Assembly (NCBI GenBank): GCA_027031765.1
Contig: JALVPN010000006.1
Location: 3,168-15,461, forward strand
Direction of reading: 5' to 3'
Origin: Promethearchaeota archaeon
Lineage (GTDB): Archaea > Asgardarchaeota > Thorarchaeia > Thorarchaeales > Thorarchaeaceae
DNA length: 12,294 nucleotides
Shown: positions 1 through 10,123 of the stretch, piece by piece
How the letters are laid out: every line of letters begins with the position of its first letter
How positions within the stretch are numbered: the stretch's first letter is position 1
Notes under the pieces: model-generated
What the model was told of the DNA's origin: nothing
The model's input: only the letters and a program-made list of their open reading frames with translations
Databases searched by the model: none
Position numbers and translations under genes: made by a program

Positions 1-221
1 ACAGAACTGTGTGACTGTCCTGCCGCCTCTGGTGTTTCATAGAGCCTAGCCGAGTGCGAGCGGACACAGCCGTGGATGCTTGTTGCTGGAACCTTTGGCA
101 CTCCCGTACCCGGTTCTCGTACAATACTATTGTCCACACGTCCCAGACGGTATCCACCTGTACCTACGTGTACAGGGTCAACCGTCATCAAGACATACTG
201 TCGTTTCTTGAATACCACCAT
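1..221 (-). CDS. cmr4: Type III RAMP Cas7-group protein Cmr4, 5' portion only (gene runs off the left edge)
   Basis: Not in the ORF track; translated by hand from ATG at 221: MVVFKKRQYVLMTVDPVHVGTGGYRLGRVDNSIVREPGTGVPKVPATSIHGCVRSHSARLYETPEAAGQSHS. This has the Cmr4 N-terminal pattern (PVHxGxG, DxxIxRE, PxxPxTSxxG). AGGAGG SD at 229-234 overlaps the cas10 stop. Confidence 0.92.
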   Translation of the reverse strand, partial: MVVFKKRQYVLMTVDPVHVGTGGYRLGRVDNSIVREPGTGVPKVPATSIHGCVRSHSARLYETPEAAGQSHSS

Positions 222-228
222 TGCTATT

Positions 229-234
229 CCTCCT
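229..234 (-). promoter_or_regulatory. Shine-Dalgarno AGGAGG for cmr4
   Basis: Minus strand reads ...ATAGTATAGGAGGAATAGCAATG. A perfect AGGAGG lies 7 nt before the ATG and overlaps the cas10 TAG stop (233-235). Confidence 0.85.
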
Positions 235-3214
235 ATACTATCTTCATGAACAGTTCGAGCGTATCTGTCAGCATGCCACTCACGCCGGCATCGACCAGTT
301 CCTTGCGGACTCCTCCATCCATGTCCCCCCATTTGCAAGGCCACGCAGCGCCTGCTAGCGTATCTCTCACAAACCTACGGAACACACCGTCCTTCAAGGA
401 CTCGTCGTAGCCCTCATACCAGCTTGCACGGGCGGCCTCTATTGTCGAAACGACCTGGTGGCGCTGGGTCTTTGACAGCTTCTTCATCTCACCCCAAATC
501 CTTTCCATCCGGTCAATGTCTTGCAAATAGAATGGTCGGCTCGGCCGTGAGGCACGCTTCCCCTCTCGATCATAGTATATCTCAAAGCGCCGGACAGTCG
601 TGTCCAAGAACTCAAAGTCGAACATTGAAGGCGTGAACCAGACGCGGTCCCCCTTCTTGAGGCCCTCGACGTGTACGAGGACTCTATCAGACTGGGACCA
701 CGGGTTGTCAGACTGGAACTGGTATGTCTGACTGCTAGCGCCCGGAGCATTGTGGAGAAACACATAGGGATACCATATGTCCTTGGTCGTGCCATCCGCC
801 ATCATCGTCGGTACGTTCCACGTGATTCGTTCCCCGTTCCGTTCGAGCACCACCTCAGCCCACTCCGTGTAGTGGCTCTTGCCAGTCGCTGGTACGCCCC
901 CCGGCAGTCCTCTGCTCCCATGCCTCTTGGAGATGTCGTGCACTGTCCACACACGCGCTTCGCTGTGCTGTCTGAGCATCTGCAGTCCTGCGTCAAAGAG
1001 GGCTCTCAGTGGTGTCTTTCGCCCCGCAAAGACTATCCCCAGCTGAAGTGGCAGTCGGTTCTGCACTTTGCCCATTTCGTACTCGTACTTGCTCTTGATG
1101 GCCTTGACCACAGCAAAGGCCTTGTTCCCCGGTACGATGACCATGAAGACTCGTGGCTCCGCCAGTATTGGGATTGCCGGGACAAAGAGGATTCCACGGC
1201 CTATCTCGACAACTCTCTCTACTTCGAATTCTCCCAGCACCCTCTTGCGAGAGCCGTAACCAGCCGGTTCTTCCACCTTCAGTCGTCCAGTAAAGTACTT
1301 TGCCGCGACATACTTGACAGCATCACGGTACGTCTTGATTTTTTCATCGTGTTGTCTCGCCAGATAGAGGAGATTGTCTGCCGTGACAAACGACTCACTT
1401 CTCGCATCCCAGACCACACTGATCCTAGTCCCTGAAGACAGGACGATATTGTATACGTGACCTCTGGCCAGCCCTAGTGAGCAAGGTTCCTTTGGTACTA
1501 TTCTAAGACGCGAACCGCAGCGCGCTACTTCTCTTTCCACGACTGAACCCTCTATGCTCCCAGAGTCCGGACACACCGCCTGCCAGAAGGCACGAGTTGT
1601 CTCCCAGATGCGGTGCAGTCGGGCAAATGAGGGACTCTTAGTTTCTGCATCAGGTTTCTTCTTGTCCTCGCCGGGCGCTCTCGCAAGTAGAGTCGAAACA
1701 AGTGTTCCATCGAGCCAGTGAGCAAGGTCAAATCCCCCAACGACGAGGGCGATTCTTCCGTTGGCGTCCGCCGTCTCATCTACCCACACTGTGCTGGAGA
1801 CCTTCGAGAGCGAGTCCAGCCAGGCCTCAGACCTCTCCGTTCTTCGCTCCTCGCAGGTATCGCAGAGGTCTCGTCCTCGCGACTTCTTGCTCGGGCCTAC
1901 TGGTCGCAGTCCGCAAGAAACACAGATGTTCTCGTGCCTGTCAGTCCAAGATTTGTTGATGCAGGCAATGTCGTTGTTCACATAGACATCGCGCGTCAAG
2001 TGAGAAGCGATTGGTGGTACGTCATATCCAGTCTTGTCGGCCCGACCCCAGTTGCGAGCATCCGATTGGATTTCGGGTACGACTTCACAGAATGCAGGCC
2101 GCGTACTACGAATGCCAGGGGGACTCCGGAACGCCTCATAGATTAAGTCAACCAATGTCTTGCCACTGTCTTGAAGGTTGGTTTCTATCCCCGCGATGTC
2201 AGGGACGACAAATATGCTCCCGTTCTCGTCCCTGTATACCTCTAGGCCAATCGGATACGTTTCTTCAAGAAGGGATCTGACCCTGTCCAGTGCTGCGCCG
2301 AGTAACTCCCTGCGGCTCATCAGGTCAGGGATTGCGGGGGATTTCAAGACGTATTCTAGACCATTTGTCCGGATACTCAGCAGTCGCCATCTAATCTTGT
2401 GTCTCTTCGTCCCAGTAAGAACAGCATATGCCATTTCCGCCTTAAAGAGAGCAGTGACAGTCTTCGACCAGTCCCACAGGCTCACCTCGTTGATGGGGTA
2501 TCTCGTGTCACCAGGAGCTGCCGGCATGTGCTCCTCGAACGCCCGAACATAGGTGGTGCTACGTTTTCCAACGAGAGTGTCCCCAGGCGATGGGAGAGAA
2601 ACAAGAACCTCTCTGAGTTTCATGTCCAAGTTTCCGATGACTGTCCGGGCAATCCCAAAAGGTGAATCGATGGTGTACCACCCCTGTGGCCCGGAAACTG
2701 CTTCTTCCTTTTCCGTATGCGCAAACTTGTGCGCATAGCCCAGTATCGTAGGAATCTGGACCAGGTCGGGAAATATGTCTTTGAATGGCAGGCCCTTTCC
2801 CGGAGCCTTGTCCCGGTGCTGCCAGACCATCGGCCGTCCCCAGAGGATAATCTCCTTCAGTGACCCCTGGCCGACAGGATTCACCGTGACTATGACGTCC
2901 GGAATCCTGCATCCCAGGCGACTAACAGTCTTCCACAATGCGGTCTGACTCACTGCCTCGTCCGAGCGAGAAGGTTGACCTATGTCCTTGCTCAGACGGC
3001 TCCAGTAAGGCAGTCCTGCTAGTTCTTGGGGCCGAAACACGGCCTTGTGTGGGTTACACTGAGGTTGTCCTCCCCTGCAGTTGCGGCACGGAAATCCTCT
3101 GCCCCCGCGTTTCAAGAACGCATCCGCACACTTCCCGATGTCGTGCAGCCAAGCCCCCAGTTCTGCCCAGAGGAGGCTCTCCGCTTCTGCCCTGGTTTTT
3201 CCGAGGTCGTGAAT
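233..3214 (-). CDS. cas10: Cas10 large subunit, type III-C (Csx11-like), ~993 aa; HD domain intact, cyclase Palm degenerate
   Basis: The ORF-track 960-aa frame (TTG at 3115) stays open upstream: IHDLGKTRAEAESLLWAELGAWLHDIGKCAD, with the HD motif at 3140-3145. Csx11-type motifs include DTRYPINEVSLWDWS, RWRLLSIRTNGL, EVYRDENG, Zn finger CVSC..CDTC, ALVVGGFDLAHWLDG, KSPSFARLHRIWETT, PILAEPRVFM (in place of GGDD), KYEYEMGKVQNRLPL and FDFEFLDT. The start at 3214 (ATT) is inferred from SD position and N-terminal pattern. Confidence 0.93.
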   Translation of the reverse strand: MHDLGKTRAEAESLLWAELGAWLHDIGKCADAFLKRGGRGFPCRNCRGGQPQCNPHKAVFRPQELAGLPYWSRLSKDIGQPSRSDEAVSQTALWKTVSRLGCRIPDVIVTVNPVGQGSLKEIILWGRPMVWQHRDKAPGKGLPFKDIFPDLVQIPTILGYAHKFAHTEKEEAVSGPQGWYTIDSPFGIARTVIGNLDMKLREVLVSLPSPGDTLVGKRSTTYVRAFEEHMPAAPGDTRYPINEVSLWDWSKTVTALFKAEMAYAVLTGTKRHKIRWRLLSIRTNGLEYVLKSPAIPDLMSRRELLGAALDRVRSLLEETYPIGLEVYRDENGSIFVVPDIAGIETNLQDSGKTLVDLIYEAFRSPPGIRSTRPAFCEVVPEIQSDARNWGRADKTGYDVPPIASHLTRDVYVNNDIACINKSWTDRHENICVSCGLRPVGPSKKSRGRDLCDTCEERRTERSEAWLDSLSKVSSTVWVDETADANGRIALVVGGFDLAHWLDGTLVSTLLARAPGEDKKKPDAETKSPSFARLHRIWETTRAFWQAVCPDSGSIEGSVVEREVARCGSRLRIVPKEPCSLGLARGHVYNIVLSSGTRISVVWDARSESFVTADNLLYLARQHDEKIKTYRDAVKYVAAKYFTGRLKVEEPAGYGSRKRVLGEFEVERVVEIGRGILFVPAIPILAEPRVFMVIVPGNKAFAVVKAIKSKYEYEMGKVQNRLPLQLGIVFAGRKTPLRALFDAGLQMLRQHSEARVWTVHDISKRHGSRGLPGGVPATGKSHYTEWAEVVLERNGERITWNVPTMMADGTTKDIWYPYVFLHNAPGASSQTYQFQSDNPWSQSDRVLVHVEGLKKGDRVWFTPSMFDFEFLDTTVRRFEIYYDREGKRASRPSRPFYLQDIDRMERIWGEMKKLSKTQRHQVVSTIEAARASWYEGYDESLKDGVFRRFVRDTLAGAAWPCKWGDMDGGVRKELVDAGVSGMLTDTLELFMKIV

Positions 3215-3216
3215 TC

Positions 3217-4233
3217 CTACTCCCCCCTTGTACTGCCTGCTTCTCTTGCGCTTTCTGCAAGCCCGTGCAGGCTACCGTACTGGACTCTCTGCTGCTCCGG
3301 AACCCCTATCTCAAGTATTCCTCTTTCGACTACTTCATCCACAAGGCCGTAGCCGCTACTTGTCTTGGCCCCAATGCCGTATAGAGTCATCATCAGGCGT
3401 ATTCCTTCTGTGACTGCGACCATGTCGTCCCTCGCCATCCGCACTGTTTCATCTGAGCTCAGGTCTGTAGAGGGCCTAGGTACGTACAGCAGCGTGAACA
3501 CCCCCTGTGCACCAACGGGTGCACACTCAAATAGGATTGGTCCACGTACTCCAACAACTCTTTCTCGGTCGTGCGGGTTGATTACCTCCAGGCCCATCTT
3601 GTCGAAATATGTCGGGTAGAAATAGAGTTGGCCTGAACTGAACGTTGTGTCTTCACTGTTGACGTTTCCAAAGAGCCGGCACATCTGCTCGTCTTTGGCC
3701 TCGTCTTCCAGTGAACCGTAGCCCCGTTCCGTACGCATCGCAGAACGAAGCGCGCCTTTCCACTGGCTCGGCGCAATGTAGGGGATCTTGAACACCCACT
3801 CCTTCTTCAGTGGGTTGTCGAGGATGTGAAACACGACATCATCCCTGCTGATGTAGGGCGTACGCAGTCTGAATGCGAACTGAAGGGCCCAGGAGTACGG
3901 CGGCAGTTGAGAGAGATCCGGAACCTTGGGAGTAAGGCCCAGTGCATCCATCTCTCTCAGACCAGTACGAATGAACTCCGATGCACTCTTTTCGACCCAG
4001 TACTTGTAGCCTCCGGGTCTTTTTCGGGTCCCACCTCTTGCTCGGTCTCCAAAGCCAGTGATGGTCGCCTGCACCAAGATATCCATGCGGTTGACTGCAT
4101 CAACAATATCGGCGAGGTCTCTCCACCTGCCAGGCAGTTCGCTGGACTCCTCAGCCAGCCACCTAATCGCACTGCCTTGTGTGACACTATCCTTCAGTGC
4201 GAATGGATAGTGCGCGTGAAATTCGTAGTTCAT
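3217..4233 (-). CDS. cmr6: Type III RAMP Cas7-group protein Cmr6 (III-C type)
   Basis: Motifs FRLRTPYISRDD, DNPLKKEWVFKIPYIAPSQWKGALRSA, RLFG, GQLYFYPTYF, INPHDR, PILFE and G-rich loop YGIGAKTSSGYG. The start is ATG 4233 (or GTG 4236), overlapping the upstream TGA, with GAGGGG SD just upstream. It lies directly before cas10, as in III-C. Confidence 0.88.
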   Translation of the reverse strand: MNYEFHAHYPFALKDSVTQGSAIRWLAEESSELPGRWRDLADIVDAVNRMDILVQATITGFGDRARGGTRKRPGGYKYWVEKSASEFIRTGLREMDALGLTPKVPDLSQLPPYSWALQFAFRLRTPYISRDDVVFHILDNPLKKEWVFKIPYIAPSQWKGALRSAMRTERGYGSLEDEAKDEQMCRLFGNVNSEDTTFSSGQLYFYPTYFDKMGLEVINPHDRERVVGVRGPILFECAPVGAQGVFTLLYVPRPSTDLSSDETVRMARDDMVAVTEGIRLMMTLYGIGAKTSSGYGLVDEVVERGILEIGVPEQQRVQYGSLHGLAESAREAGSTRGE

Positions 4234-6278
4234 CACGGTATCCCCTCACAAAGTGCATTCCAAGCAGCAATGAGCGGTGCAAAGACCTTCCTCAGTTCCT
4301 CCTCTGGTGCTCTCTTGACAATCTCCTCTGCAAAATAGGCGTGCGACTTTCGACGTTGCAGTGCTGTGACATAGGCATAGAGCCACGACTTTGAGTGGGT
4401 CCACGGATATCCCTTTTGTTTCATTAGGTCGGAAAAGCCTATTTCAGCGTTCTCAATGAGATCCTGCGCCAGAGGGGCAATCCTCTCATTCAGAATTCTC
4501 CGGGCAATCTTAGCCTTGACGTGGCTCTGCAGCAACTGGAGCAGATAGCCGTCAAAATCGAGTCCATCAATATCAGGTGTTTTCGCGTTCGACACATGGA
4601 GTACTACGTGGCAATTCTCCGTGAGGTACTCGAATAGGTTGTCGAACTTTACTGTGGGCATGGGAGCGAAATCGATTCCCAGACGATGTCCGATATCTCT
4701 TGCCGCGTCTGAAGGCTTCTTTCGTGTTTCCTGGTCGAAAATGAGCAATGCTCTACCACAAGTGCGGATATCTATACCTGCTATTTGCTGCATCATATTG
4801 TGGAATCCTTCTGTTCCCGGGCCAAAAAAAGGGCCCCAATCCGTTGGCGATGGCGTAGCCTTATGTGATAGCAGCTCGCGTCTGTACAGTATTTTTCCTA
4901 CAGCTCTCTCAGTTGCTCCCTCCGCAAATACATAGATTGCAGCAGCTGCCATCGTGATTTGTTTCCGTCCGGAGATGAATCTCAAGAGCGGCGATTCCAT
5001 CTCATCCTGACCAACCATTCTGGGGTCCCCCACGAGCCTCAGCCAGGACCCAATGCCCCTACCCACAAGGCGTTTGACTTTGAGAACCCCGGATACGAGG
5101 TCCAGAATGTACGTAGTGGCGTTCTCTGCTTTTCTTGCGTCCTCGCTCTCAAGGTAGTTTGCCAGCCAAGCAATGACATCCAAGCTCTGTGTCGAAACAA
5201 AGACTTGAATTGGGCTGTCAGACACTATGTTGACCACTTCCTTCAGTAGCCGGCTGAGGGTGGCCGGATGAGCAAAGAGTTCGGGCTCCTCCCACAAGAG
5301 AATACCCGGGTCTTCTGTACTGGCGCTTGCAGCCAGAGCCCTTAGGCATGCCAGTATCTTGAATGCGTGGCGAAACCCGTCCCCGAACTGGTCGACCTCA
5401 AGTGGAACCTTGTCTGGGAACTCTATGTAGCCAGTCTTTGCCTTGCCATCAGCTGTATCTCTGATTGTCACTTCGGCTTCTTCCACTTCAGGAAACACTG
5501 TTCGGAGGCTTCTTGCGATATCGTCCTCCCATCCTGGGATTGATCTGTACCAGTTGTTTGCGACACTGGACTTGAAATGGGCATTCACGGTATGAAAATC
5601 GGAGAACAGGACATGGCCCACAGTTGGCCCTGAATACTCCTCAACCCAGACAGATAGAAGGTCTGTCGGTTCTTCCCTGTCCCAGCGGTATACCCACTTT
5701 GAGTCCCACAAGAAGTGCCAGCGACTGCGTTCCTCCGGGTCATGGTGCTCTTCAAGACTGCGTTTCTCTGAGCCGTAGTGCTCAGCGATGTAGCGCGGGA
5801 CGAGTTCGGGTGGAACTATCAGGTCGGTGTCCTCTGTTCTGTTTGGCTTTCCAAGAGTAGCCATCATGGCGGACGGTACGTCAGACTCCTTGAACGGGGA
5901 CATCCTTGCAATGTGAAACTTCGGAAGAGCAAGGTCTGCGCGCTCGTCAACAACATTGACTTCAATGCGGTCTTGATTGAGGCTGACGGTTTCCGGCGTG
6001 GTGGGTGTCGCATATCCGTGTCTCTGACCTAGCCGCGCTACCGGGTCGTAGCCCAAGAAGTCCTGAAGAGTCAGCATAGTGGCACCGTATGCGGAGGGGC
6101 TCAAGTCCTCGCTGACGAGCGTGCACTGGGCGCGTGACAGGCCTCCGAGATATAGCATTTCCAGTATCGAGGTCTTGCCACTGTTGTTGGGACCAACGAA
6201 CAGGTTCAGTTTTCCAAAGTCGGACACAGTCCCCTCACGTATACCTCGAAACCTATGGATGATGAGGCCCTTTATCAA
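4233..6278 (-). CDS. ABC-type (AAA_15/AAA_21-like) ATPase fused to a C-terminal TOPRIM-like domain (OLD / DUF3226-like architecture), ~681 aa
   Basis: N-terminus MIKGLIIHRFRGI; Walker A GPNNSGKT (6171-6194); signature-like FGDGFRHAF (5361-5387); Walker B/D-loop ILLWEEPELFAHP (core 5280-5303); switch STQS (5184-5195). C-terminal module YVFAEGATE (4917-4934) plus LIFDQE (~4728-4745) matches the TOPRIM E...DxD/E pattern. The start is TTG 6278 or 6281, after GGAGG at 6288-6292. The ATPase call is strong; the TOPRIM call is moderate. Confidence 0.8.
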   Translation of the reverse strand: MIKGLIIHRFRGIREGTVSDFGKLNLFVGPNNSGKTSILEMLYLGGLSRAQCTLVSEDLSPSAYGATMLTLQDFLGYDPVARLGQRHGYATPTTPETVSLNQDRIEVNVVDERADLALPKFHIARMSPFKESDVPSAMMATLGKPNRTEDTDLIVPPELVPRYIAEHYGSEKRSLEEHHDPEERSRWHFLWDSKWVYRWDREEPTDLLSVWVEEYSGPTVGHVLFSDFHTVNAHFKSSVANNWYRSIPGWEDDIARSLRTVFPEVEEAEVTIRDTADGKAKTGYIEFPDKVPLEVDQFGDGFRHAFKILACLRALAASASTEDPGILLWEEPELFAHPATLSRLLKEVVNIVSDSPIQVFVSTQSLDVIAWLANYLESEDARKAENATTYILDLVSGVLKVKRLVGRGIGSWLRLVGDPRMVGQDEMESPLLRFISGRKQITMAAAAIYVFAEGATERAVGKILYRRELLSHKATPSPTDWGPFFGPGTEGFHNMMQQIAGIDIRTCGRALLIFDQETRKKPSDAARDIGHRLGIDFAPMPTVKFDNLFEYLTENCHVVLHVSNAKTPDIDGLDFDGYLLQLLQSHVKAKIARRILNERIAPLAQDLIENAEIGFSDLMKQKGYPWTHSKSWLYAYVTALQRRKSHAYFAEEIVKRAPEEELRKVFAPLIAAWNALCEGIP

Positions 6279-7381
6279 CAAATGCACCCTCCGAGAACCC
6301 CTTCTAGTTCGTCCACAGTCCAAGGTTGCCATTCCTTCCTATTGGGAAGTACCTCTAGCCTTCCAGGCACTCCGACAACCCTCTCCCACGTCCGTCTGTC
6401 ACACAGGATTCTCCACAGCACCTCAGCCGCCTTCATATCGGCTGGCATCCGCGCCCATCCACGGATTTCCCAGTGGTCCTCGCTACGGAATGCCCAACTC
6501 ACTGCAACTCTGCTGCGAATGCGAGTCGGCTGTACGGAGCCGAATATGTTCTTGTCGTCACCCATCCTCTTGGCATATTGCTCGTAGCGCCATTCATTCT
6601 TCAGCGAAGGTGAAACAGGTACAACCTGGTGCTTGTTTACGAGGGGTTGGATCTCGGTAGCTACTCCCGCCAGTCCGGGAATTGAGGTCCACCAGCCTGG
6701 CTTCTGCGGCTCGAATTGATACGAGAAGAACATGAACTCCGTGATATTTGGTGACTCCGTCGGCCCGTCGCCAATAGGTGCCCATTTGAATGGCTCAATC
6801 CTTCCATCCAAGCCCCTGTCTGCCAGTCGGAAGAGCCCGTATCCCAGCTGGGGTTTCGCGCCCAGACTCCCATATTTCTCTAGGAACAAGAGCAGTGAAA
6901 CTATCCTCGATAGGGATTCTCGCAATCCTCTCAGTCTGATAGTGAACTCCCCCATTCGGCCCGGTGGCAGGTACCATCCTCGTGTTCTCTTCGGCGGGAC
7001 GATGTGTAGCAAATGCCCGGAGTCGTCCCATATTGGGATGGTATCGTCTCTGTGGATTCTCATCGTGAACCGTCTCTTCCAGCCAGTAGCACCGAAGAGC
7101 TGGCACGCATCGCATAGTCCTGTCTGAATGGACTGTTCTCTCTGGGTGGCGGCCTCAGACTCCCCGGGATTCTCCAAGTTCAAGGAGCATTTTGCCTGAC
7201 CCGACTTCCCACTTGGGTCGCAGGCCCTACCTCCCAGCCCGCGAATCAGTACCTCGTACCACCAACGAATCGAACCGATGAGTCCGGTCTCATGAATACG
7301 GTTCATAGTGCCATTGGAGTCTCCAGTCCAGATGGGAGTAGATGCCCGTATCTGGATGTCTAGGTTGCGAAACTCCGCCAT
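6275..7381 (-). CDS. cmr1: Type III RAMP Cas7-group protein Cmr1 (III-C type), ~368 aa
   Basis: Motifs TPIWTG, IHETGLIGSIRWWYEVLIRGLGGRACDP, CDACQLFGATGW and G-rich loop GSLGAKPQLGYG. The start is moved from 7501 to ATG 7381 because RAMP homology begins at MAEFRNLDIQIRASTP. Confidence 0.9.
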   Translation of the reverse strand: MAEFRNLDIQIRASTPIWTGDSNGTMNRIHETGLIGSIRWWYEVLIRGLGGRACDPSGKSGQAKCSLNLENPGESEAATQREQSIQTGLCDACQLFGATGWKRRFTMRIHRDDTIPIWDDSGHLLHIVPPKRTRGWYLPPGRMGEFTIRLRGLRESLSRIVSLLLFLEKYGSLGAKPQLGYGLFRLADRGLDGRIEPFKWAPIGDGPTESPNITEFMFFSYQFEPQKPGWWTSIPGLAGVATEIQPLVNKHQVVPVSPSLKNEWRYEQYAKRMGDDKNIFGSVQPTRIRSRVAVSWAFRSEDHWEIRGWARMPADMKAAEVLWRILCDRRTWERVVGVPGRLEVLPNRKEWQPWTVDELEGVLGGCIC

Positions 7382-7386
7382 GGCGC

Positions 7387-7416
7387 ATTCTAGTGTGGCA
7401 CGCCCTAATATTATTT
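7387..7416 (-). promoter_or_regulatory. Candidate promoter of the cmr operon (possibly a leaderless transcript)
   Basis: Minus strand: GGGGGAAATAATATTAGGGCGTGCCACACTAGAATGCGCC-ATG. An AT-rich palindromic box TAATATTA lies 24 nt before the ATG, preceded by a purine run (archaeal BRE/TATA geometry). TAGAAT lies 5 nt before the ATG (bacterial -10-like). There is no SD before cmr1. Confidence 0.35.
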
Positions 7417-7714
7417 CCCCCAGTCCCGGCGATGTGGGATGGATCACGCCCTCTGCACGGAGTCGAGAGCAGGCCGGGCAGTCGCTACTATTGCCCGCCA
7501 ACCCATCAGGAGCAATTCGATTAGCATTCCTCCCTTGAGAACGTAGCCCGAAGTGGTATCGATTGGTTGTCTAGTCCTCATACTACTATGCCTGATGCCG
7601 TCACCCTTGCTCCCTCTCCTGTTGCCCATCGATGCATAGAGTTTGCACCTTCGTGGCAATGCGGCCAAGTAGAGAGGGCTCGGAGATGTGCAAACTCATG
7701 GTCAACGGGAGTGC

Positions 7715-7816
7715 GGCTCCAATGAAACAACTGGCTTCTTGTGTGCCGAACGGGGCATCTCTGCAGGGTGGTGAAAGGATGGGGTTCCAATCGAGCAACT
7801 GGCCTCTTGTGTGCCG
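7715..7816 (-). repeat. Two 34-nt imperfect direct repeats (7715-7748, 7783-7816) separated by 34 nt; CRISPR-mini-array-like
   Basis: ggctccaatgaaacaactggcttcttgtgtgccg vs ggttccaatcgagcaactggcctcttgtgtgccg, 29/34 identical. On the minus strand the copies end in ATTGGAGC and ATTGGAAC, resembling the ATTGAAAC-type 3' end of many CRISPR repeats. Confidence 0.6.
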
Positions 7817-7909
7817 CCAGTCTGCTCTGAACACAGTGCTCCACAACCCTGCATCCCATGTGCCCAGCTCGTACAGGTCCAAGTCGGTCTGCTCGAAACA
7901 CAGTGTTCG
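7816..7909. repeat. Second imperfect direct-repeat pair (7816-7842, 7883-7909), offset 67 nt
   Basis: gccagtctgctctgaacacagtgctcc vs gtcggtctgctcgaaacacagtgttcg, 21/27 identical. Confidence 0.5.
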
Positions 7910-7971
7910 GCATCCTCTTGCGAAAGCCTTATTGTTCGCAGACGAGCACGTCCCTGACGAGGGAGCTTGTC

Positions 7972-9705
7972 GTGAGATTCCACATAGAGAACTTGGGCCC
8001 GATACGGTCGGCGGATCTTGAGATTGGCGACATAACAGTCGTGTTCGGGCCTCCAAATACAGGGAAGTCATATACCCTCAGAGCCCTGTATGCTTCGACT
8101 CTAATGCTCGACCAATACGCGCGCGAATTCGAGCTTCGTGACCTCATCGGTACGTATGATGCAGTCAATCTGCCTTTGAACCTGCGAGGCTCACTAAGGG
8201 CCTTGTACGTGTTGTTGGTGTTGCACGCGTTGGGCCACGAGCGGCTGGATGACCAAGAATTGAATCTCACCGAAATCCTCAAGGAACTGACTGGCGCGGA
8301 AAGCGTTCGCTGGAGCTTTCAGAATGGCACGCTCAACTTCACTGCAAGGGCTTCCAGTGACATTCCTGTTGATAGCCTGCTTGCGCCCACCATGGACTTC
8401 TATCGGGATATCGTCCTGGTGAGAGACGACTCGGAACTGGATAGTTCGGTCTCTGTGCCCGAGCTCCTTGACTTGATTGCCGAGATTTCTGCAGAACCAC
8501 GTAGGTATGTCAAGAACTTTGCCGATTCGAGGAGGATTGCGAGCTGCAAAGTGAATGTTTCATTTAGCATGAGGCCTGAAGGGATAGTCGCAGTTGCTCT
8601 GGAGCTCACCTTCTCCATGAGGGCCGATGGCAAGGCGGCCGAGAAAATCCTCTCAAAGAGGGCTATGGAGATATTCAAGGAGATTGCTCCGTCGGCAGAG
8701 AATCTGAAGGCCACGGTGAGTGAGATTGTTCACAGGGCCGGCAGGCCTGGCCATGTCCTAGGTTCCATTCTTCCGTACAGCATTGAACTATGGCTGAACA
8801 ACATGTTTTGGAGGTTCATAGACGAGTCAATATGCCAGCCGCTTGCAGCAGCCCATGCCGAGTCATACGGTCTAGAGGAAGTGCGTTTCATCCCATTCGG
8901 AAGGAGCATCGCCATCAACCAGCTGGAACTCCTCTCGCAAGAACCGATTCGAAGACACAGACTTGCGTACGGCATGGTGTACGAGTCTGATGTCGTCCTG
9001 CATTCCTACATATCGTGGCTGAGTCTGGGCAGATCCATGATTGCAGAGGGCTCTTACGACGATGAAGCAGTCGAGCTCTTTCTTCCGGTGCTCCAAGGCA
9101 GACTCCTCTATGAGAGGTCGAGAGGTCTATCATACTTCACGGGTGCGTGCACCGTGCCAATCAACGCGGCCTCGGCCCTAGCCGGAGAGGTCGCTGGAAT
9201 CCTGTTGCCAGTTCTCTCGACGCGGCCTAGGTCAAGGATAATCATCGAGGAGCCTGAGGCACAACTACACTATTCCGCTCAACTACTGATGGGACTGACT
9301 CTGGCGGCGCTCGCAAGCAAGTATGGGCATGAAGTGATTTTCAGTACGCACAGCGACCTTGTTGTCCTAATCCTTGCATACATAAAGACGCACCGACCCA
9401 GCGGTAAGAAAATCCGTGAGCTTGTAGAGAAACTCTTGGAGGTGCAGAGGTTACCGGTTGAGGGCGATTCACTTGAGTTGCTATCAGAATACGCTGCGCG
9501 AGCGGGGGACCTCGACATCCGGTTCTACTACTACGGGCCTGAACAGGACGGCGTTCAGGTCTCAGAAGTACCTGTCGATGCACTAACGAGGCATATTCCC
9601 AGTCTGACGGATGTCATAGACATTCTGCTGGAGTGGGCGATAGGCCTAGGAGACGATAGTGATGCCGAAGACGACGAGCAGGCCGAAAATGGTAGCCGAG
9701 TATGA
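7972..9705 (+). CDS. ABC-type ATPase (AAA_15/AAA_21-like, predicted defence-associated), ~577 aa
   Basis: N-terminus MRFHIENLGPIRSADLEIGDITVVF; Walker A GPPNTGKS (8047-8070); FIPFGRS; signature-like ASALAGEV; Walker B/D-loop IIIEEPEAQLH (from 9238); H-loop FSTHSD (STHS 9343-9354). The start is moved to GTG 7972, with GAGGGAG 6 nt upstream. Confidence 0.88.
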   Translation: MRFHIENLGPIRSADLEIGDITVVFGPPNTGKSYTLRALYASTLMLDQYAREFELRDLIGTYDAVNLPLNLRGSLRALYVLLVLHALGHERLDDQELNLTEILKELTGAESVRWSFQNGTLNFTARASSDIPVDSLLAPTMDFYRDIVLVRDDSELDSSVSVPELLDLIAEISAEPRRYVKNFADSRRIASCKVNVSFSMRPEGIVAVALELTFSMRADGKAAEKILSKRAMEIFKEIAPSAENLKATVSEIVHRAGRPGHVLGSILPYSIELWLNNMFWRFIDESICQPLAAAHAESYGLEEVRFIPFGRSIAINQLELLSQEPIRRHRLAYGMVYESDVVLHSYISWLSLGRSMIAEGSYDDEAVELFLPVLQGRLLYERSRGLSYFTGACTVPINAASALAGEVAGILLPVLSTRPRSRIIIEEPEAQLHYSAQLLMGLTLAALASKYGHEVIFSTHSDLVVLILAYIKTHRPSGKKIRELVEKLLEVQRLPVEGDSLELLSEYAARAGDLDIRFYYYGPEQDGVQVSEVPVDALTRHIPSLTDVIDILLEWAIGLGDDSDAEDDEQAENGSRV

Positions 9706-10123
9706 AGAGAACAACTGCAAGGTAATTCTTATGGGTGGCCAGCCCTTCCTAGTCCTCAACTTCGAAGAATACGCGGATCTCAAGGGAATGCACCTTCCCC
9801 ATTGCGATGTAGTGTATGTCATGCACAAGGACAACAAATGGAATGTCTACCTCGTTGAACTCAAGAACATCGCTGACAAGTCGGCTTCTCTTGACGCCAT
9901 CCGTAGTCTTCGGGACAAGTTCGAGAGAACCAAGAGACTCCTCGGTGGACTGCTGGACTGCCTGGGCGCAAGACACCGTGAGTACTATCACATACTGGTA
10001 GTCCCGAGGAAAATATGCGTGGCTCTTGCAAAACACACACTTCTACTGAAGCGGAAGAGAATACTTGGTTCTCACGCCTGGATAGTGCCCTGCGGTGACA
10101 GTATCTTTGGCAGATGCCTGTAG
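9689..10123 (+). CDS. Small predicted PD-(D/E)xK (restriction-endonuclease-fold) nuclease, ~144 aa, partner of the upstream ATPase
   Basis: HCDVVYV...VYLVELKN gives a D (9806) and E-x-K (9857-9865) in a beta-strand context. The ATG at 9689 overlaps the ATPase 3' end by 17 nt, suggesting translational coupling. Confidence 0.68.
   Translation: MVAEYEENNCKVILMGGQPFLVLNFEEYADLKGMHLPHCDVVYVMHKDNKWNVYLVELKNIADKSASLDAIRSLRDKFERTKRLLGGLLDCLGARHREYYHILVVPRKICVALAKHTLLLKRKRILGSHAWIVPCGDSIFGRCL

Follow-up and report, generated by a model that had tools for sequence, protein, structure and literature searches.

Type III complexes that directly bind a protein other than Cas10 include the type III-E Craspase (gRAMP and TPR-CHAT) and Cmr-beta of Sulfolobus (Cmr7), and in Craspase target RNA activates the bound protein with no need of a nucleotide messenger. 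One of these proteins is a caspase-like protease and the other a structural subunit; neither is an ATPase or a Toprim protein, and both are unrelated to the module described here. Pairs of genes termed Cas_RecF + RFas and 'Cas ABC ATPase + sRRM' adjoin crenarchaeal type III loci (Vestergaard 2014, PMC3973734; Shah 2018, PMC6546367). Compared by description only, they resemble our module in combining an ABC/SMC-type ATPase with a small partner gene linked to type III cassettes; however, they flank III-A, III-B, and III-D loci, their partners are of ~150-170 aa (RRM or unknown), and none has been described from the cmr1-cmr6 interval of III-C. Type III-C has been reported to be without cyclase sites and without known effectors (Hoikkala et al. 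2024, PMC11229360), and our literature search found no paper describing an ATPase-Toprim module in this subtype.

In the window, i.e., the whole stretch of 12,294 nucleotides analyzed, cmr1, a 682-aa ORF, cmr6, a Csx11-type cas10, and cmr4 all lie on the minus strand [Table 1], and cmr5 and cmr3 come next on the contig (C6), as found by tblastn with Chloroflexus aggregans Cmr4, Cmr5, and Cmr3. The Csx11-type Cas10, whose TIGR02682 score exceeds the cut-off of the model, the canonical cmr1-cmr6-cas10-cmr4-cmr5-cmr3 order, and VPGNK in place of the cyclase GGDD support the assignment to type III-C (Csx11/MTH326-like) with a cyclase-less Cas10 that an earlier note on this DNA had made. All 52 Cas10c sequences carry VPGNK, or VPAD(K/R) in relatives, at the GGDD position, and the HD motif is present as in other III-C loci. 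The first canonical start of cas10 is at 3115; the open frame (1,012 aa) with the HD motif reaches further upstream, and W-L-H-D-I-G-K lies upstream of the TTG. Compared with other III-C loci, however, the window has one added gene between cmr1 and cmr6 (two in relatives), and a conserved C-terminal domain bearing a W-W motif distinguishes the Cmr1 of module-bearing loci. The true start of cmr1 is likely the ATG at 7381, and the window Cmr1 is 38-48% identical to the Cmr1s of module-bearing loci. No CRISPR array adjoins the operon, the single array found being on another contig. Further genes in the window are a second ATPase-nuclease pair and an SMC-like gene; nearby, the same contig encodes a pAgo.

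Table 1. Coordinates of the operon genes in the window and of the domains and predicted contact segments of their products
Feature	Position	Strand	Evidence or remark
cmr4, 5' part	3..344	-	PADLOC Cmr4 2e-14; gene runs past window edge
cas10, subtype III-C (Csx11)	233..3216	-	TIGR02682 2.4e-121; PADLOC Cas10c 5.9e-179
cmr6 (RAMP)	3217..4236	-	PADLOC Cmr6 3.3e-69; Pfam RAMPs 3e-11
Fused ATPase-Toprim-like ORF	4233..6281	-	single open frame; stop TGA 4235..4233
Toprim-like domain and C-terminal helical domain, residues 443-682	4236..4955	-	AF2 pLDDT 92.7
Fusion seam	4953..4991	-	ATPase C-terminal tail in frame into former start Met M443 (ATG 4955..4953)
ABC-type ATPase domain, residues 1 to ~430	4992..6281	-	Pfam AAA_15 2.6e-16, AAA_21 6.8e-16
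ATPase beta-hairpin, residues 53-66	6084..6125	-	predicted Cmr1 contact (co-fold interface list)
cmr1 (Cas7-family RAMP)	6275..7501	-	Pfam RAMPs 1e-16; TIGR01894 7e-14; PADLOC Cmr1 5e-20
Cmr1 C-terminal-domain segment, ORF residues ~267-289	6635..6703	-	invariant G-W-W-T-x-I-P-G; predicted ATPase docking site

Direct reading of the sequence confirmed two of the earlier observations, namely that the ORF lies between cmr1 and cmr6 on the same strand and that its TGA overlaps the cmr6 start behind GAGGGG, where GTGATG provides both a GTG (4236) and an ATG (4233). At the 5' junction, GGAGG is followed after 6 nt by TTG (6281) and TTG (6278), and the cmr1 TGA occupies 6277..6275, so that cmr1 and the ORF overlap by 7 nt if the first TTG is used or as TTGA if the second is. 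The TTG start that had been placed behind GGAGG at the cmr1 stop is correct to within one codon, because the N-termini of homologues (consensus M-I-x-R-L-x-I-H-R-F-R-G-I) match the second TTG by length; the product counts 682 aa from the first TTG and 681 aa from the second. Such start/stop overlaps are found at both ends of the ORF and likewise in the loci of relatives.

The N-terminal part of the ORF matches the PADLOC models AriA (1.5e-19), AbiLi (2.7e-17), and Old (4.8e-14) and carries Walker A (GPNNSGKT, residues 30-37, 6194..6171), a signature-like FGDGxRHAFK, and Walker B (LLWEEPE). The H-loop reads T-Q-S, not T-H-S, and Gln at this His position, which also occurs in many family members, may weaken ATP hydrolysis. 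In Foldseek, the best matches of the AF2 model (pLDDT 87.4) are PtuA, SMC, and Rad50 heads. For the C-terminal ~240 residues, neither Pfam nor PADLOC has a matching model, and no Toprim sequence model matches. E454 (4922..4920; the glutamate of 'FAEG', unchanged across the family), D516 of F-D-Q-E (4736..4734), D577, K631, and S646 are invariant, and the model and alignment place the acidic residues at the C-terminal ends of strands 1 and 3. The best structural match is PH0156/DUF3226 (PDB 2p62; VIA Z 12.9, 194 residues, rmsd 3.3), followed by 6nk8, an OLD C-terminal region (9.8), 8ux9, the PARIS AriB (8.2), and GajA (7.0). Hence, of the ABC ATPase and TOPRIM of the OLD/PARIS/AbiL kind claimed earlier, the ATPase is borne out by profiles, while Toprim membership is a predicted one that rests on fold and motif positions only.

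By this make-up, the module appears to be an ABC-type ATPase with a Toprim-like putative nuclease, built like OLD-family and PARIS systems. PARIS (AriA ABC ATPase and AriB DUF4435 Toprim nuclease; OLD family class 4) provides the best PADLOC match of the ATPase, shares with the relatives of the module a two-gene layout (an ABC ATPase gene, then an overlapping gene for a Toprim-fold protein of ~240-300 aa), and has AriB chains to which the module C-domain aligns at Z 8.1-8.2. Unlike PARIS, the module has no AriB/DUF4435 sequence match, is embedded in a CRISPR effector operon with predicted Cmr1 binding, and is a single chain in the window. In the latter respect, the window resembles OLD classes 1-3 (P2 Old, Gabija GajA, and the retron Eco2/Ec67 effector), which likewise have an N-terminal ABC ATPase and a C-terminal Toprim with a helical region (Z: BpOLD 9.8, XccOLD 9.1, Eco2 6.9). 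In contrast to these classes, the module has no Pfam Toprim or DUF2813 match at threshold (PF11398 is just faint in relatives), its ATPase core with the T-Q-S H-loop is nearer to the PtuA, SMC, and Rad50 heads, and its partners are Cmr proteins rather than a helicase or reverse transcriptase. Small Toprim-like proteins (PH0156/DUF3226, DUF4276, RloB (AbiLii), and HEC-01B) are of similar size with an N-terminal E-G motif; Atlas neighbors of the Toprim-like domain carry DUF3226, RloB, or DUF4276, although just 1/17 Toprim-like members reaches the DUF3226 model (E 0.0012). PADLOC HEC-01B weakly matches (1.2e-4) the partner of a stand-alone relative (L150), and no paper naming DUF3226 was found in our literature search.

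The single gene of the earlier note is true of the window, where both profile matches (A3, 9e-163; A2, 1e-88) fall in one open frame, but not of the relatives, all of which have two adjacent genes. In all other loci, the ATPase and Toprim-like ORFs are in different frames or overlapping, and separate Toprim-like partners of 234-240 aa begin at a Met equivalent to M443 in the alignment. No other fusion turned up among 1.84 billion representatives. The probable source run yielded a Logan contig that spans 4100-6085 with zero differences and zero gaps; being independent and identical, it argues that the open frame over the seam (~4950-4990) is not an artefact of one assembler. Two genes are the ancestral state, and the one-gene form is peculiar to the lineage of the window.

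In bacteria and archaea that are only distantly related, the module is nearly confined to the cmr1-cmr6 interval of III-C operons. This position was found in 24/25 readable family contexts (from Chloroflexota, Bacillota, Thermodesulfatator, and ANME archaea), which disposes of the concern, raised with the earlier note, that homologues might rarely be cas-associated and the gene a one-off passenger. All 17 loci with full-length ATPase relatives, drawn from GTDB genomes and metagenomes, have the order cmr1, ATPase, ~0.75 kb ORF, cmr6, cas10c, cmr4, and so do L131, L132, L151, L152, L154, and the P0239 contig, the last even with a Toprim-like match as weak as 3e-10. A partner HMM placed the Toprim-like ORF directly after the ATPase in each locus with sufficient sequence. 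Carriers include Roseiflexus, Chloroflexus, Anaerolineae, Desulfofundulus, Desulfotomaculum, Heliomicrobium, Thermodesulfatator, and ANME-2/ANME-3 archaea, and the partner family comprises just 173 clusters (E<=0.001) among the 1.84 billion representatives. On the Cas10c tree, 12/13 carriers fall in one clade of 16 and the module label changes 6 times, against 11.8 on shuffling (0/500 shuffles as low); the module was passed down with this clade and sometimes lost, at least four times within it. 'Hard-wired', as the gene had been called, does not hold for III-C generally, since only 2/52 non-seed Csx11-positive genomes carry the module and close relatives have lost it, so that III-C functions without it. 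Even so, we consider it very probable that the module is genuinely dedicated to III-C.

Co-folding of Cmr1 with the ATPase domain gave an ipSAE of 0.65 (runs 0.64-0.68; best of 3 controls 0.00), with >=93% of contacts in common between runs and partner pLDDT >=82. The ipSAE mark was reached by 58/80 solved complexes and 2/110 mismatched pairs, counts that hold only roughly here because our own alignments were used. No solved Cmr1-ATPase complex is known to us, which makes it unlikely that the pass reflects a memorized structure. The predicted interface comprises residues 223-245 of the submitted Cmr1 chain, in which W226/W227 are invariant in 15 module-bearing Cmr1s, and, on the ATPase, residues 103-105 and 123-127 besides the beta-hairpin. 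In module-bearing loci the Cmr1 C-domain HMM scores 185-235 bits, a comparison biased toward its own training set; it gives no score in L122 and L123, which are nested module-less relatives, and 10-15 bits, outside the W-W segment, in module-less L133, L134, and L135, although the Cmr1 N-domains of all five still reach 131-201 bits. The direct contact with the Cmr complex proposed earlier thereby gains support from the co-fold and from the absence of the interface segment in the nearest module-less relatives, and we lean slightly toward a physical contact of the module with Cmr1.

In our preferred reading (probability roughly 0.55), the window ORF represents an accessory module, elsewhere encoded by two genes and here fused, that is dedicated to a III-C sub-clade and serves as a facultative, messenger-free effector arm. 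III-C Cas10 would be unable to signal by cyclic oligoadenylate because it lacks a cyclase motif; conceivably, target RNA binding by the complex is relayed through Cmr1 to the ATPase instead. The ATPase would be a nucleotide-gated switch which keeps the Toprim-like domain off and then licenses nucleic-acid cutting, of invader DNA near the transcript or of RNA such as tRNA. That the module is a target-RNA-licensed nuclease is a more tentative proposal, somewhat short of even odds. The HD motif of Cas10, kept in 12/13 carriers, speaks against an effector arm in that there is no absent nuclease to replace. If true, III-C, as the subtype without a known output arm, would gain a protein-coupled one beside the Cas10 HD nuclease.

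The predicted Cmr1 contact suits equally well a PARIS-like guard, in which the ATPase on Cmr1, or monitoring it, would fire the Toprim nuclease (abortive infection) when the complex is bound or damaged by a phage anti-CRISPR or another inhibitor, and not upon target RNA. PARIS, whose ATPase scaffold reportedly senses a phage anti-restriction protein, ranks, both in profile and in fold (Z 8.2 to 8ux9/8v46), among the defined systems nearest to the module, and the facultative, patchy distribution suits an add-on counter-counter-defence. We consider a guard unlikely, however, as no AriB sequence match was found, a guard would not need a fixed cmr1-cmr6 position in both domains of life, and we know of no anti-CRISPR against III-C. 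The predicted docking at the crRNA 3'-end cap subunit could also suggest a non-effector helper, i.e., an ATP-driven assembly, recycling, or regulatory factor. Such a factor might carry out RNA processing, or the loading or release of crRNA or target RNA at the Cmr1/Cmr6 head, and its Toprim-like domain would perhaps serve in binding or processing, not as a toxic nuclease. The His-to-Gln change, which points to a slow switch and not to a motor, the uncharacterized PH0156 as best match, not a proven nuclease, and the retained Cas10 HD fit this role; yet it is improbable, given that the acidic residues typical of Toprim catalysis are invariant, second paralogue included, that relatives of known function (OLD, GajA, AriB, retron Eco2) are nucleases, and that the operons of module-less sister loci are intact, so complex assembly does not depend on the module. 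An independent two-gene defence system (AbiL, HEC-01, or PARIS-like) riding in the operon and working without the CRISPR complex would agree with the tendency of defence genes to cluster in islands (the second ATPase-nuclease pair, SMC-like gene, and pAgo), the absence of the module from most III-C loci, and the one homologous pair without cas genes (L150, Myxococcota-like), by which the module is presumably able to act alone, but is very unlikely in view of an operon position that is the same in different phyla and domains, inheritance with one Cas10 clade, a Cmr1 co-fold that passes its controls, and an interface segment gone where the module is gone. For the effector arm favored here, the gene fusion in the window's genome would set the ATPase:Toprim-like ratio at 1:1.

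Six-frame ORF analysis and profile scans placed the window genes from cmr1 to cmr4 in one minus-strand operon, with cmr5 and cmr3 on the same contig beyond the window. The III-C order cmr1-cmr6-cas10-cmr4-cmr5-cmr3 is preserved except for an inserted ORF of 682 aa, and the window Cas10 is of the Csx11 type, i.e., the type III-C Cas10 (Cas10c), with 406.8 bits for TIGR02682 against a cut-off of 248.95. At the 5' junction of the inserted ORF, two TTG codons come after GGAGG, and the second overlaps the cmr1 stop as TTGA and is the start that fits the N-termini of homologues; at the 3' junction, GAGGGG lies ahead of GTGATG and the TGA of the ORF overlaps the cmr6 start. The earlier note had described overlaps and SD-like motifs at both ends of the ORF and assigned the operon to type III-C, and the window sequence bears out the former, while the Csx11-type Cas10, the canonical order and the lack of GGDD agree with the latter. 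In the probable source run, from a hydrothermal-vent metagenome, a Logan contig matches window positions 4100-6085 without difference; it comes from the same read data as the assembly and so adds no independent biological support, and its identity indicates that the long open frame is no artefact of one assembler. Next to none of the stretch was present in run X3 of the same study. A frameshifted cmr4 was ruled out, the break being a 10-N scaffold gap inside cmr4 (contig positions ~3157-3166), just before the window start.

Coordinates of the operon genes and of further features in the window
Feature	Position	Strand	Evidence
cmr1	7501..6275	minus	six-frame ORFs and profile scans
fused 682-aa ORF	6281..4233	minus	six-frame ORFs and profile scans
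cmr6	4236..3217	minus	six-frame ORFs and profile scans
cas10, Csx11-type	3115..233	minus	TIGR02682 2.4e-121; PADLOC Cas10c 5.9e-179
cmr4 start	344..3	minus	ORFs and profile scans
in-frame stretch with Cas10c HD motif W-L-H-D-I-G-K	3116-3216	minus	
37-nt direct repeats upstream of cmr1	7712-7748, 7780-7816		84% identical, spacing 68
second ABC-type ATPase, 615 aa, with overlapping 154-aa ORF	7858-10123	plus	PADLOC PDC-M56A and PD-T4-4_A-like

A word-index search with the full protein gave ~110 homologues, all of ~430 aa and matching the ATPase portion only. In their loci the ATPase is followed, usually with an overlap, by a separate ORF of 234-260 aa which is 42-49% identical to the window C-terminal domain, and HMMs of both halves hit separate ORFs in all other loci, a single ORF being seen in the window alone. 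When 1.84 billion representatives were searched exhaustively by HMMER with the profile of the partner, 173 proteins reached E<=0.001, almost all of them 230-270 aa long, and the window's own product was the sole fused protein among them. By these sequence comparisons, the 682-aa ORF is a fusion of two genes, an ATPase and its partner, hereafter the module.

Scanning GTDB with the ATPase alignment, we obtained 17 loci holding full-length relatives, and tblastn with the window Cas proteins gave the order cmr1, ATPase, ~0.75 kb, cmr6, cas10c, cmr4 in all 17. The same order was seen in two loci at 34-36% identity (L151 and L152), in two further Chloroflexota genomes (L131 and L132), and around partner-family members as distant as E 1e-24 (locus L154) and 3e-10 (the contig of protein P0239). 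Altogether 24 of the 25 readable contexts, from at least four bacterial phyla and ANME archaea, have the site between cmr1 and cmr6, which answers affirmatively the earlier note's question of whether homologues often lie there; the feature is real and conserved. The clear exception, locus L150, lacks cas genes: a stand-alone ATPase of 29% identity is paired there with a partner of 251 aa (hhalign probability 99.5%, E 2.7e-23), and a small nucleotidyltransferase follows. Three Myxococcota loci (L018, L021 and L026) gave partial P-loop matches only, with ORF lists too noisy for reading. Tandem double pairs occupy the site in four loci (L001, L002, L005 and L011; Roseiflexus, Chloroflexus sp. MS-G), with identities to the window domains of ~36% for the second ATPase and 20-25% for the second partner. 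Minimal nucleotidyltransferase genes (NTP_transf_2) were also seen with the module, two between cmr6 and cas10c (L154:7822-8558) and one after the stand-alone pair (L150:9088-9459), and extra Toprim-like ORFs lie upstream of the ATPase in one archaeal locus (L009:74-1045, partner profile 2e-14) and upstream of cmr1 in another (L013:32-496, 5e-27).

We then estimated the frequency of the module by searching TIGR02682 in three phylum samples of ~400 genomes each (the phyla of the window, Desulfofundulus and Chloroflexus), which held 10, 24 and 21 Csx11-positive genomes, respectively. The nine other positives of the window phylum have plain cmr1-cmr6-cas10c-cmr4, and among the 45 genomes of the latter two samples the ATPase profile (E<=1e-20) matched only two seeds, i.e., known carriers, and two others. 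The module is thus present in 2/52 non-seed Csx11-positive genomes (5/55 counting seeds and window; samples rather than a full census), so that the description of it as hard-wired does not hold for III-C in general; all 45 module-less III-C loci that we fetched show the canonical order. Carrier genomes with a second, module-less Csx11 locus were observed (G402:C8:30873-33467 and G1067:C1:1934328-1936304, the latter with an internal TAG). In an unrooted tree of 52 Cas10c proteins (IQ-TREE short search), which does not formally separate gains from losses, 12 of the 13 module-bearing Cas10c share a single starred clade of 16 rows, with the ANME-2 locus elsewhere and four module-less loci (L122, L123, L133 and L134) nested in the clade. 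Six label changes were observed against 11.8 on shuffling, none of 500 shuffles was as low, and the starred branches force at least five. This clustering, together with the nested module-less loci, is indicative of a module that is clade-linked but dispensable, through repeated loss or transfer. In essence, comparative genomics shows the module to be a dedicated, facultative putative effector arm of a III-C sub-clade.

Residues 1 to ~430 of the fused ORF match AAA_15 (2.6e-16) and AAA_21 (6.8e-16) in Pfam, and AriA, PDC-M38A, AbiLi, Old (4.8e-14), HEC-01A and GajA in PADLOC at 1e-9 to 1e-19. Three motifs do not vary among the 21 relatives, namely Walker A, a signature-like FGDGxRxxFK and Walker B as LWE(D/E)PE, and an AF2 model (pLDDT 87.4) confirms the ABC ATPase fold, as expected of an OLD-type N-terminal ATPase. 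For the C-terminal domain (residues 443-682), scans of the last 245-305 aa against Pfam and PADLOC at E up to 10 found no family, the partner profile gave only chance matches to PDB sequences, and no Toprim-clan sequence model matched. The domains were folded separately; the combined alignment misplaced the short partners, whose identities fell from 42-48% to 27-32%. With a 17-homologue alignment the C-terminal domain was modelled at pLDDT 92.7 and pTM 0.89. Foldseek on the separate halves, a check which had been proposed from the sequence, was productive for both, placing the ATPase nearest to PtuA and to SMC and Rad50 heads, and the C-terminal domain nearest to PH0156/DUF3226 (2p62) and then to OLD C-terminal regions. 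VIA-align Z was 12.9 for 2p62, the nearest solved structure, followed by Burkholderia OLD (9.8), Xanthomonas OLD (9.1), PARIS AriB (8.2), GajA (7.0) and retron Eco2 (6.9), and the Atlas neighbours are annotated as DUF3226, RloB or DUF4276.

Toprim domains carry metal ligands at the C-terminal ends of strands 1 and 3, and E454 and the D-x-D/E motif occupy these ends in the model. Invariant positions are E454-G455, T457, D516, D577, K631 and S646, the D516 motif being F-D-Q-E (D516-x-E518) in the window and R-D-x-D in the second paralogue. Modelled fold and motif geometry thus support a Toprim-like domain outside any sequence family, and with no family match we keep to the label 'Toprim-like'. 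Of the ATPase-TOPRIM protein proposed earlier, then, the ATPase stands by profiles and fold, whereas the Toprim part is borne by fold and motif geometry and not by sequence models. The likeness to OLD C-terminal regions is one of fold and motif positions, with no Toprim sequence model; the DUF3226 Pfam model (PF11536) does not match the window domain and matches one of 17 family members (E 0.0012); and for AbiL, AbiLi scores 2.7e-17 on the ATPase with no RloB sequence match, although one Atlas RloB cluster resembles the C-terminal domain (TM 0.48/0.55).

Type III-C is the classic type III subtype in which Cas10 has no cyclase site, and ancillary effectors are not known for it (PMC11229360; PMC12669027); it is without known effectors in Hoikkala et al. 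2024 (PMC11229360), and the 2025 classification mentions it solely for the inactive cyclase. The window Cas10c reads VPGNK at a column which is VPAD(K/R) in 51 other Csx11 proteins, and none of the 52 Cas10c has GGDD in the aligned column; we read this column as the Palm2 GGDD position, helped by a PADLOC Cas10 match at residues 658-716. The HD motif is retained in the Cas10c of 12/13 carriers and in many non-carriers. The module is therefore no substitute for a lost HD nuclease, and the Toprim-like domain as a stand-in for the Cas10 HD domain was ruled out. In the window, the HD motif is in frame upstream of the first ATG/GTG/TTG of cas10, within a stop-to-stop frame of 1012 aa, so cas10 must begin at a non-canonical start or in some other unusual way.

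To this we add a predicted contact with the complex. The co-fold of Cmr1 and the ATPase domain, built on alignments of 15 and 21 rows, respectively, scored 0.65 (runs 0.64-0.68), while the best of three controls scored 0.00; 58/80 solved complexes and 2/110 mismatched pairs reach the 0.65 mark, counts that are rough for our own alignments. The runs share at least 93% of contacts with partner pLDDT of at least 82. Modelling with Cmr1, another check suggested by the earlier note, thus came out positive and supports binding of the ATPase to Cmr1. The predicted interface comprises a hairpin at 53-66 with 103-105 and 123-127 on the ATPase, and 122-126 and 223-245 of the submitted Cmr1 chain (+44 for ORF numbering). 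Within the latter lies G-W-W-T-x-I-P-G, both Trp of which are invariant in 15 module-bearing Cmr1s; in a 56-Cmr1 alignment the motif is present in 17/17 module-bearing proteins and absent from the five nearest module-less ones, and W-W-like stretches in some distant module-less Cmr1s mean that it is not strictly diagnostic. Cmr1 domain HMMs were built from carriers, a real training-set bias, and the informative part is the contrast of N- and C-domain within each protein: carriers score 235-338 bits (N) and 185-235 bits (C), L122 and L123 131-168 bits (N) and none (C), and L133, L134 and L135 174-201 bits (N) and 10-15 bits (C), the last outside the W-W segment. Modelling and correlated loss together support docking at the Cmr1 C-domain.

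The reading that we favour, at a probability of roughly 35%, is that a sub-clade of III-C signals without a nucleotide messenger. The ATPase would sit at the crRNA 3' cap, docked on the C-domain of Cmr1, binding of target RNA would be passed mechanically through this domain to the ATPase, and the ATPase would gate the OLD/PARIS-type Toprim nuclease, which is released or activated. Nucleases of the OLD, Gabija and PARIS systems are gated by their ATPases, and we infer relay and gating from this together with the lack of a cyclase. One rival is that the module is a PARIS-like guard of the complex. AriA models match the ATPase in two partial stretches (1.5e-19 and 5.9e-17), with similar scores for AbiLi, PDC-M38A and Old, and neither PADLOC AriB nor Pfam DUF4435 matches the partner to E 10, so that the likeness to AriB is in fold alone. 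A second rival is an ATP-driven helper or regulator. The H-loop His is replaced by Gln in the window (S-T-Q-S, 5187-5195, residues 363-365) and in many III-C-embedded ATPases, which may mean slow ATP hydrolysis; T-H-S is retained in the stand-alone outgroup and some paralogues. An unrelated passenger system would agree with the patchy occurrence and is hard to square with the near-constant site between cmr1 and cmr6.

If signalling does run through Cmr1 and the ATPase, the module would give a cyclase-less Cas10 system an output arm coupled through protein, and the window fusion would be the ready-made minimal version of that arm. III-C immunity beyond a possible HD nuclease is little understood, and the module is a concrete candidate for its output, which would tie RNA-guided type III complexes to OLD/PARIS-type ATPase-gated Toprim nucleases. 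Were direct contact the trigger, type III would have, besides Craspase, a second instance of coupling that needs no messenger, and possibly an RNA-triggered nuclease switch. The patchy module and the matched loss of the Cmr1 segment provide natural 'with' and 'without' pairs, and the fusion simplifies biochemistry. In the literature on III-C with ATPase/Toprim we found no description of the module, whose genes may be listed as unknown ATPases in the classification supplementary tables, and no published name in Shah 2018, the Shmakov 2018 preprint, Hoikkala 2024, Makarova 2025 or the Cran1/OLD papers; 'DUF3226' was named in no paper. Shah 2018 (PMC6546367) lists C3a152 (Cylst_6373) as 'Type III-C specific', and the 'type III-C' of CoCoNuT and CBASS is unrelated naming. 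New here are the natural fusion, the Cmr1 docking prediction, the matched Cmr1-segment loss, the Cas10 tree and the stand-alone outgroup.

The window contig has a G+C content of 54% against ~58-64% on other contigs sampled, carries III-C, two ATPase pairs, an SMC-like gene and pAgo, and looks like an acquired defence island. The second ABC-type ATPase, whose gene shares an overlap with an ORF of 154 aa, is encoded divergently from the cas operon; this pair and the SMC-like gene are not conserved beside the other III-C loci fetched and were ruled out as system parts, the pair being probably a separate defence pair. No CRISPR array adjoins the III-C operon. The sole clear array found in the assembly is on another contig (C63, 4875-5740), with at least 13 repeats of 31 nt running to the contig end, and the reverse complement of its repeat ends in GTTGAAAC. 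The two 37-nt direct repeats upstream of cmr1 differ from this repeat and could be a mini-array.
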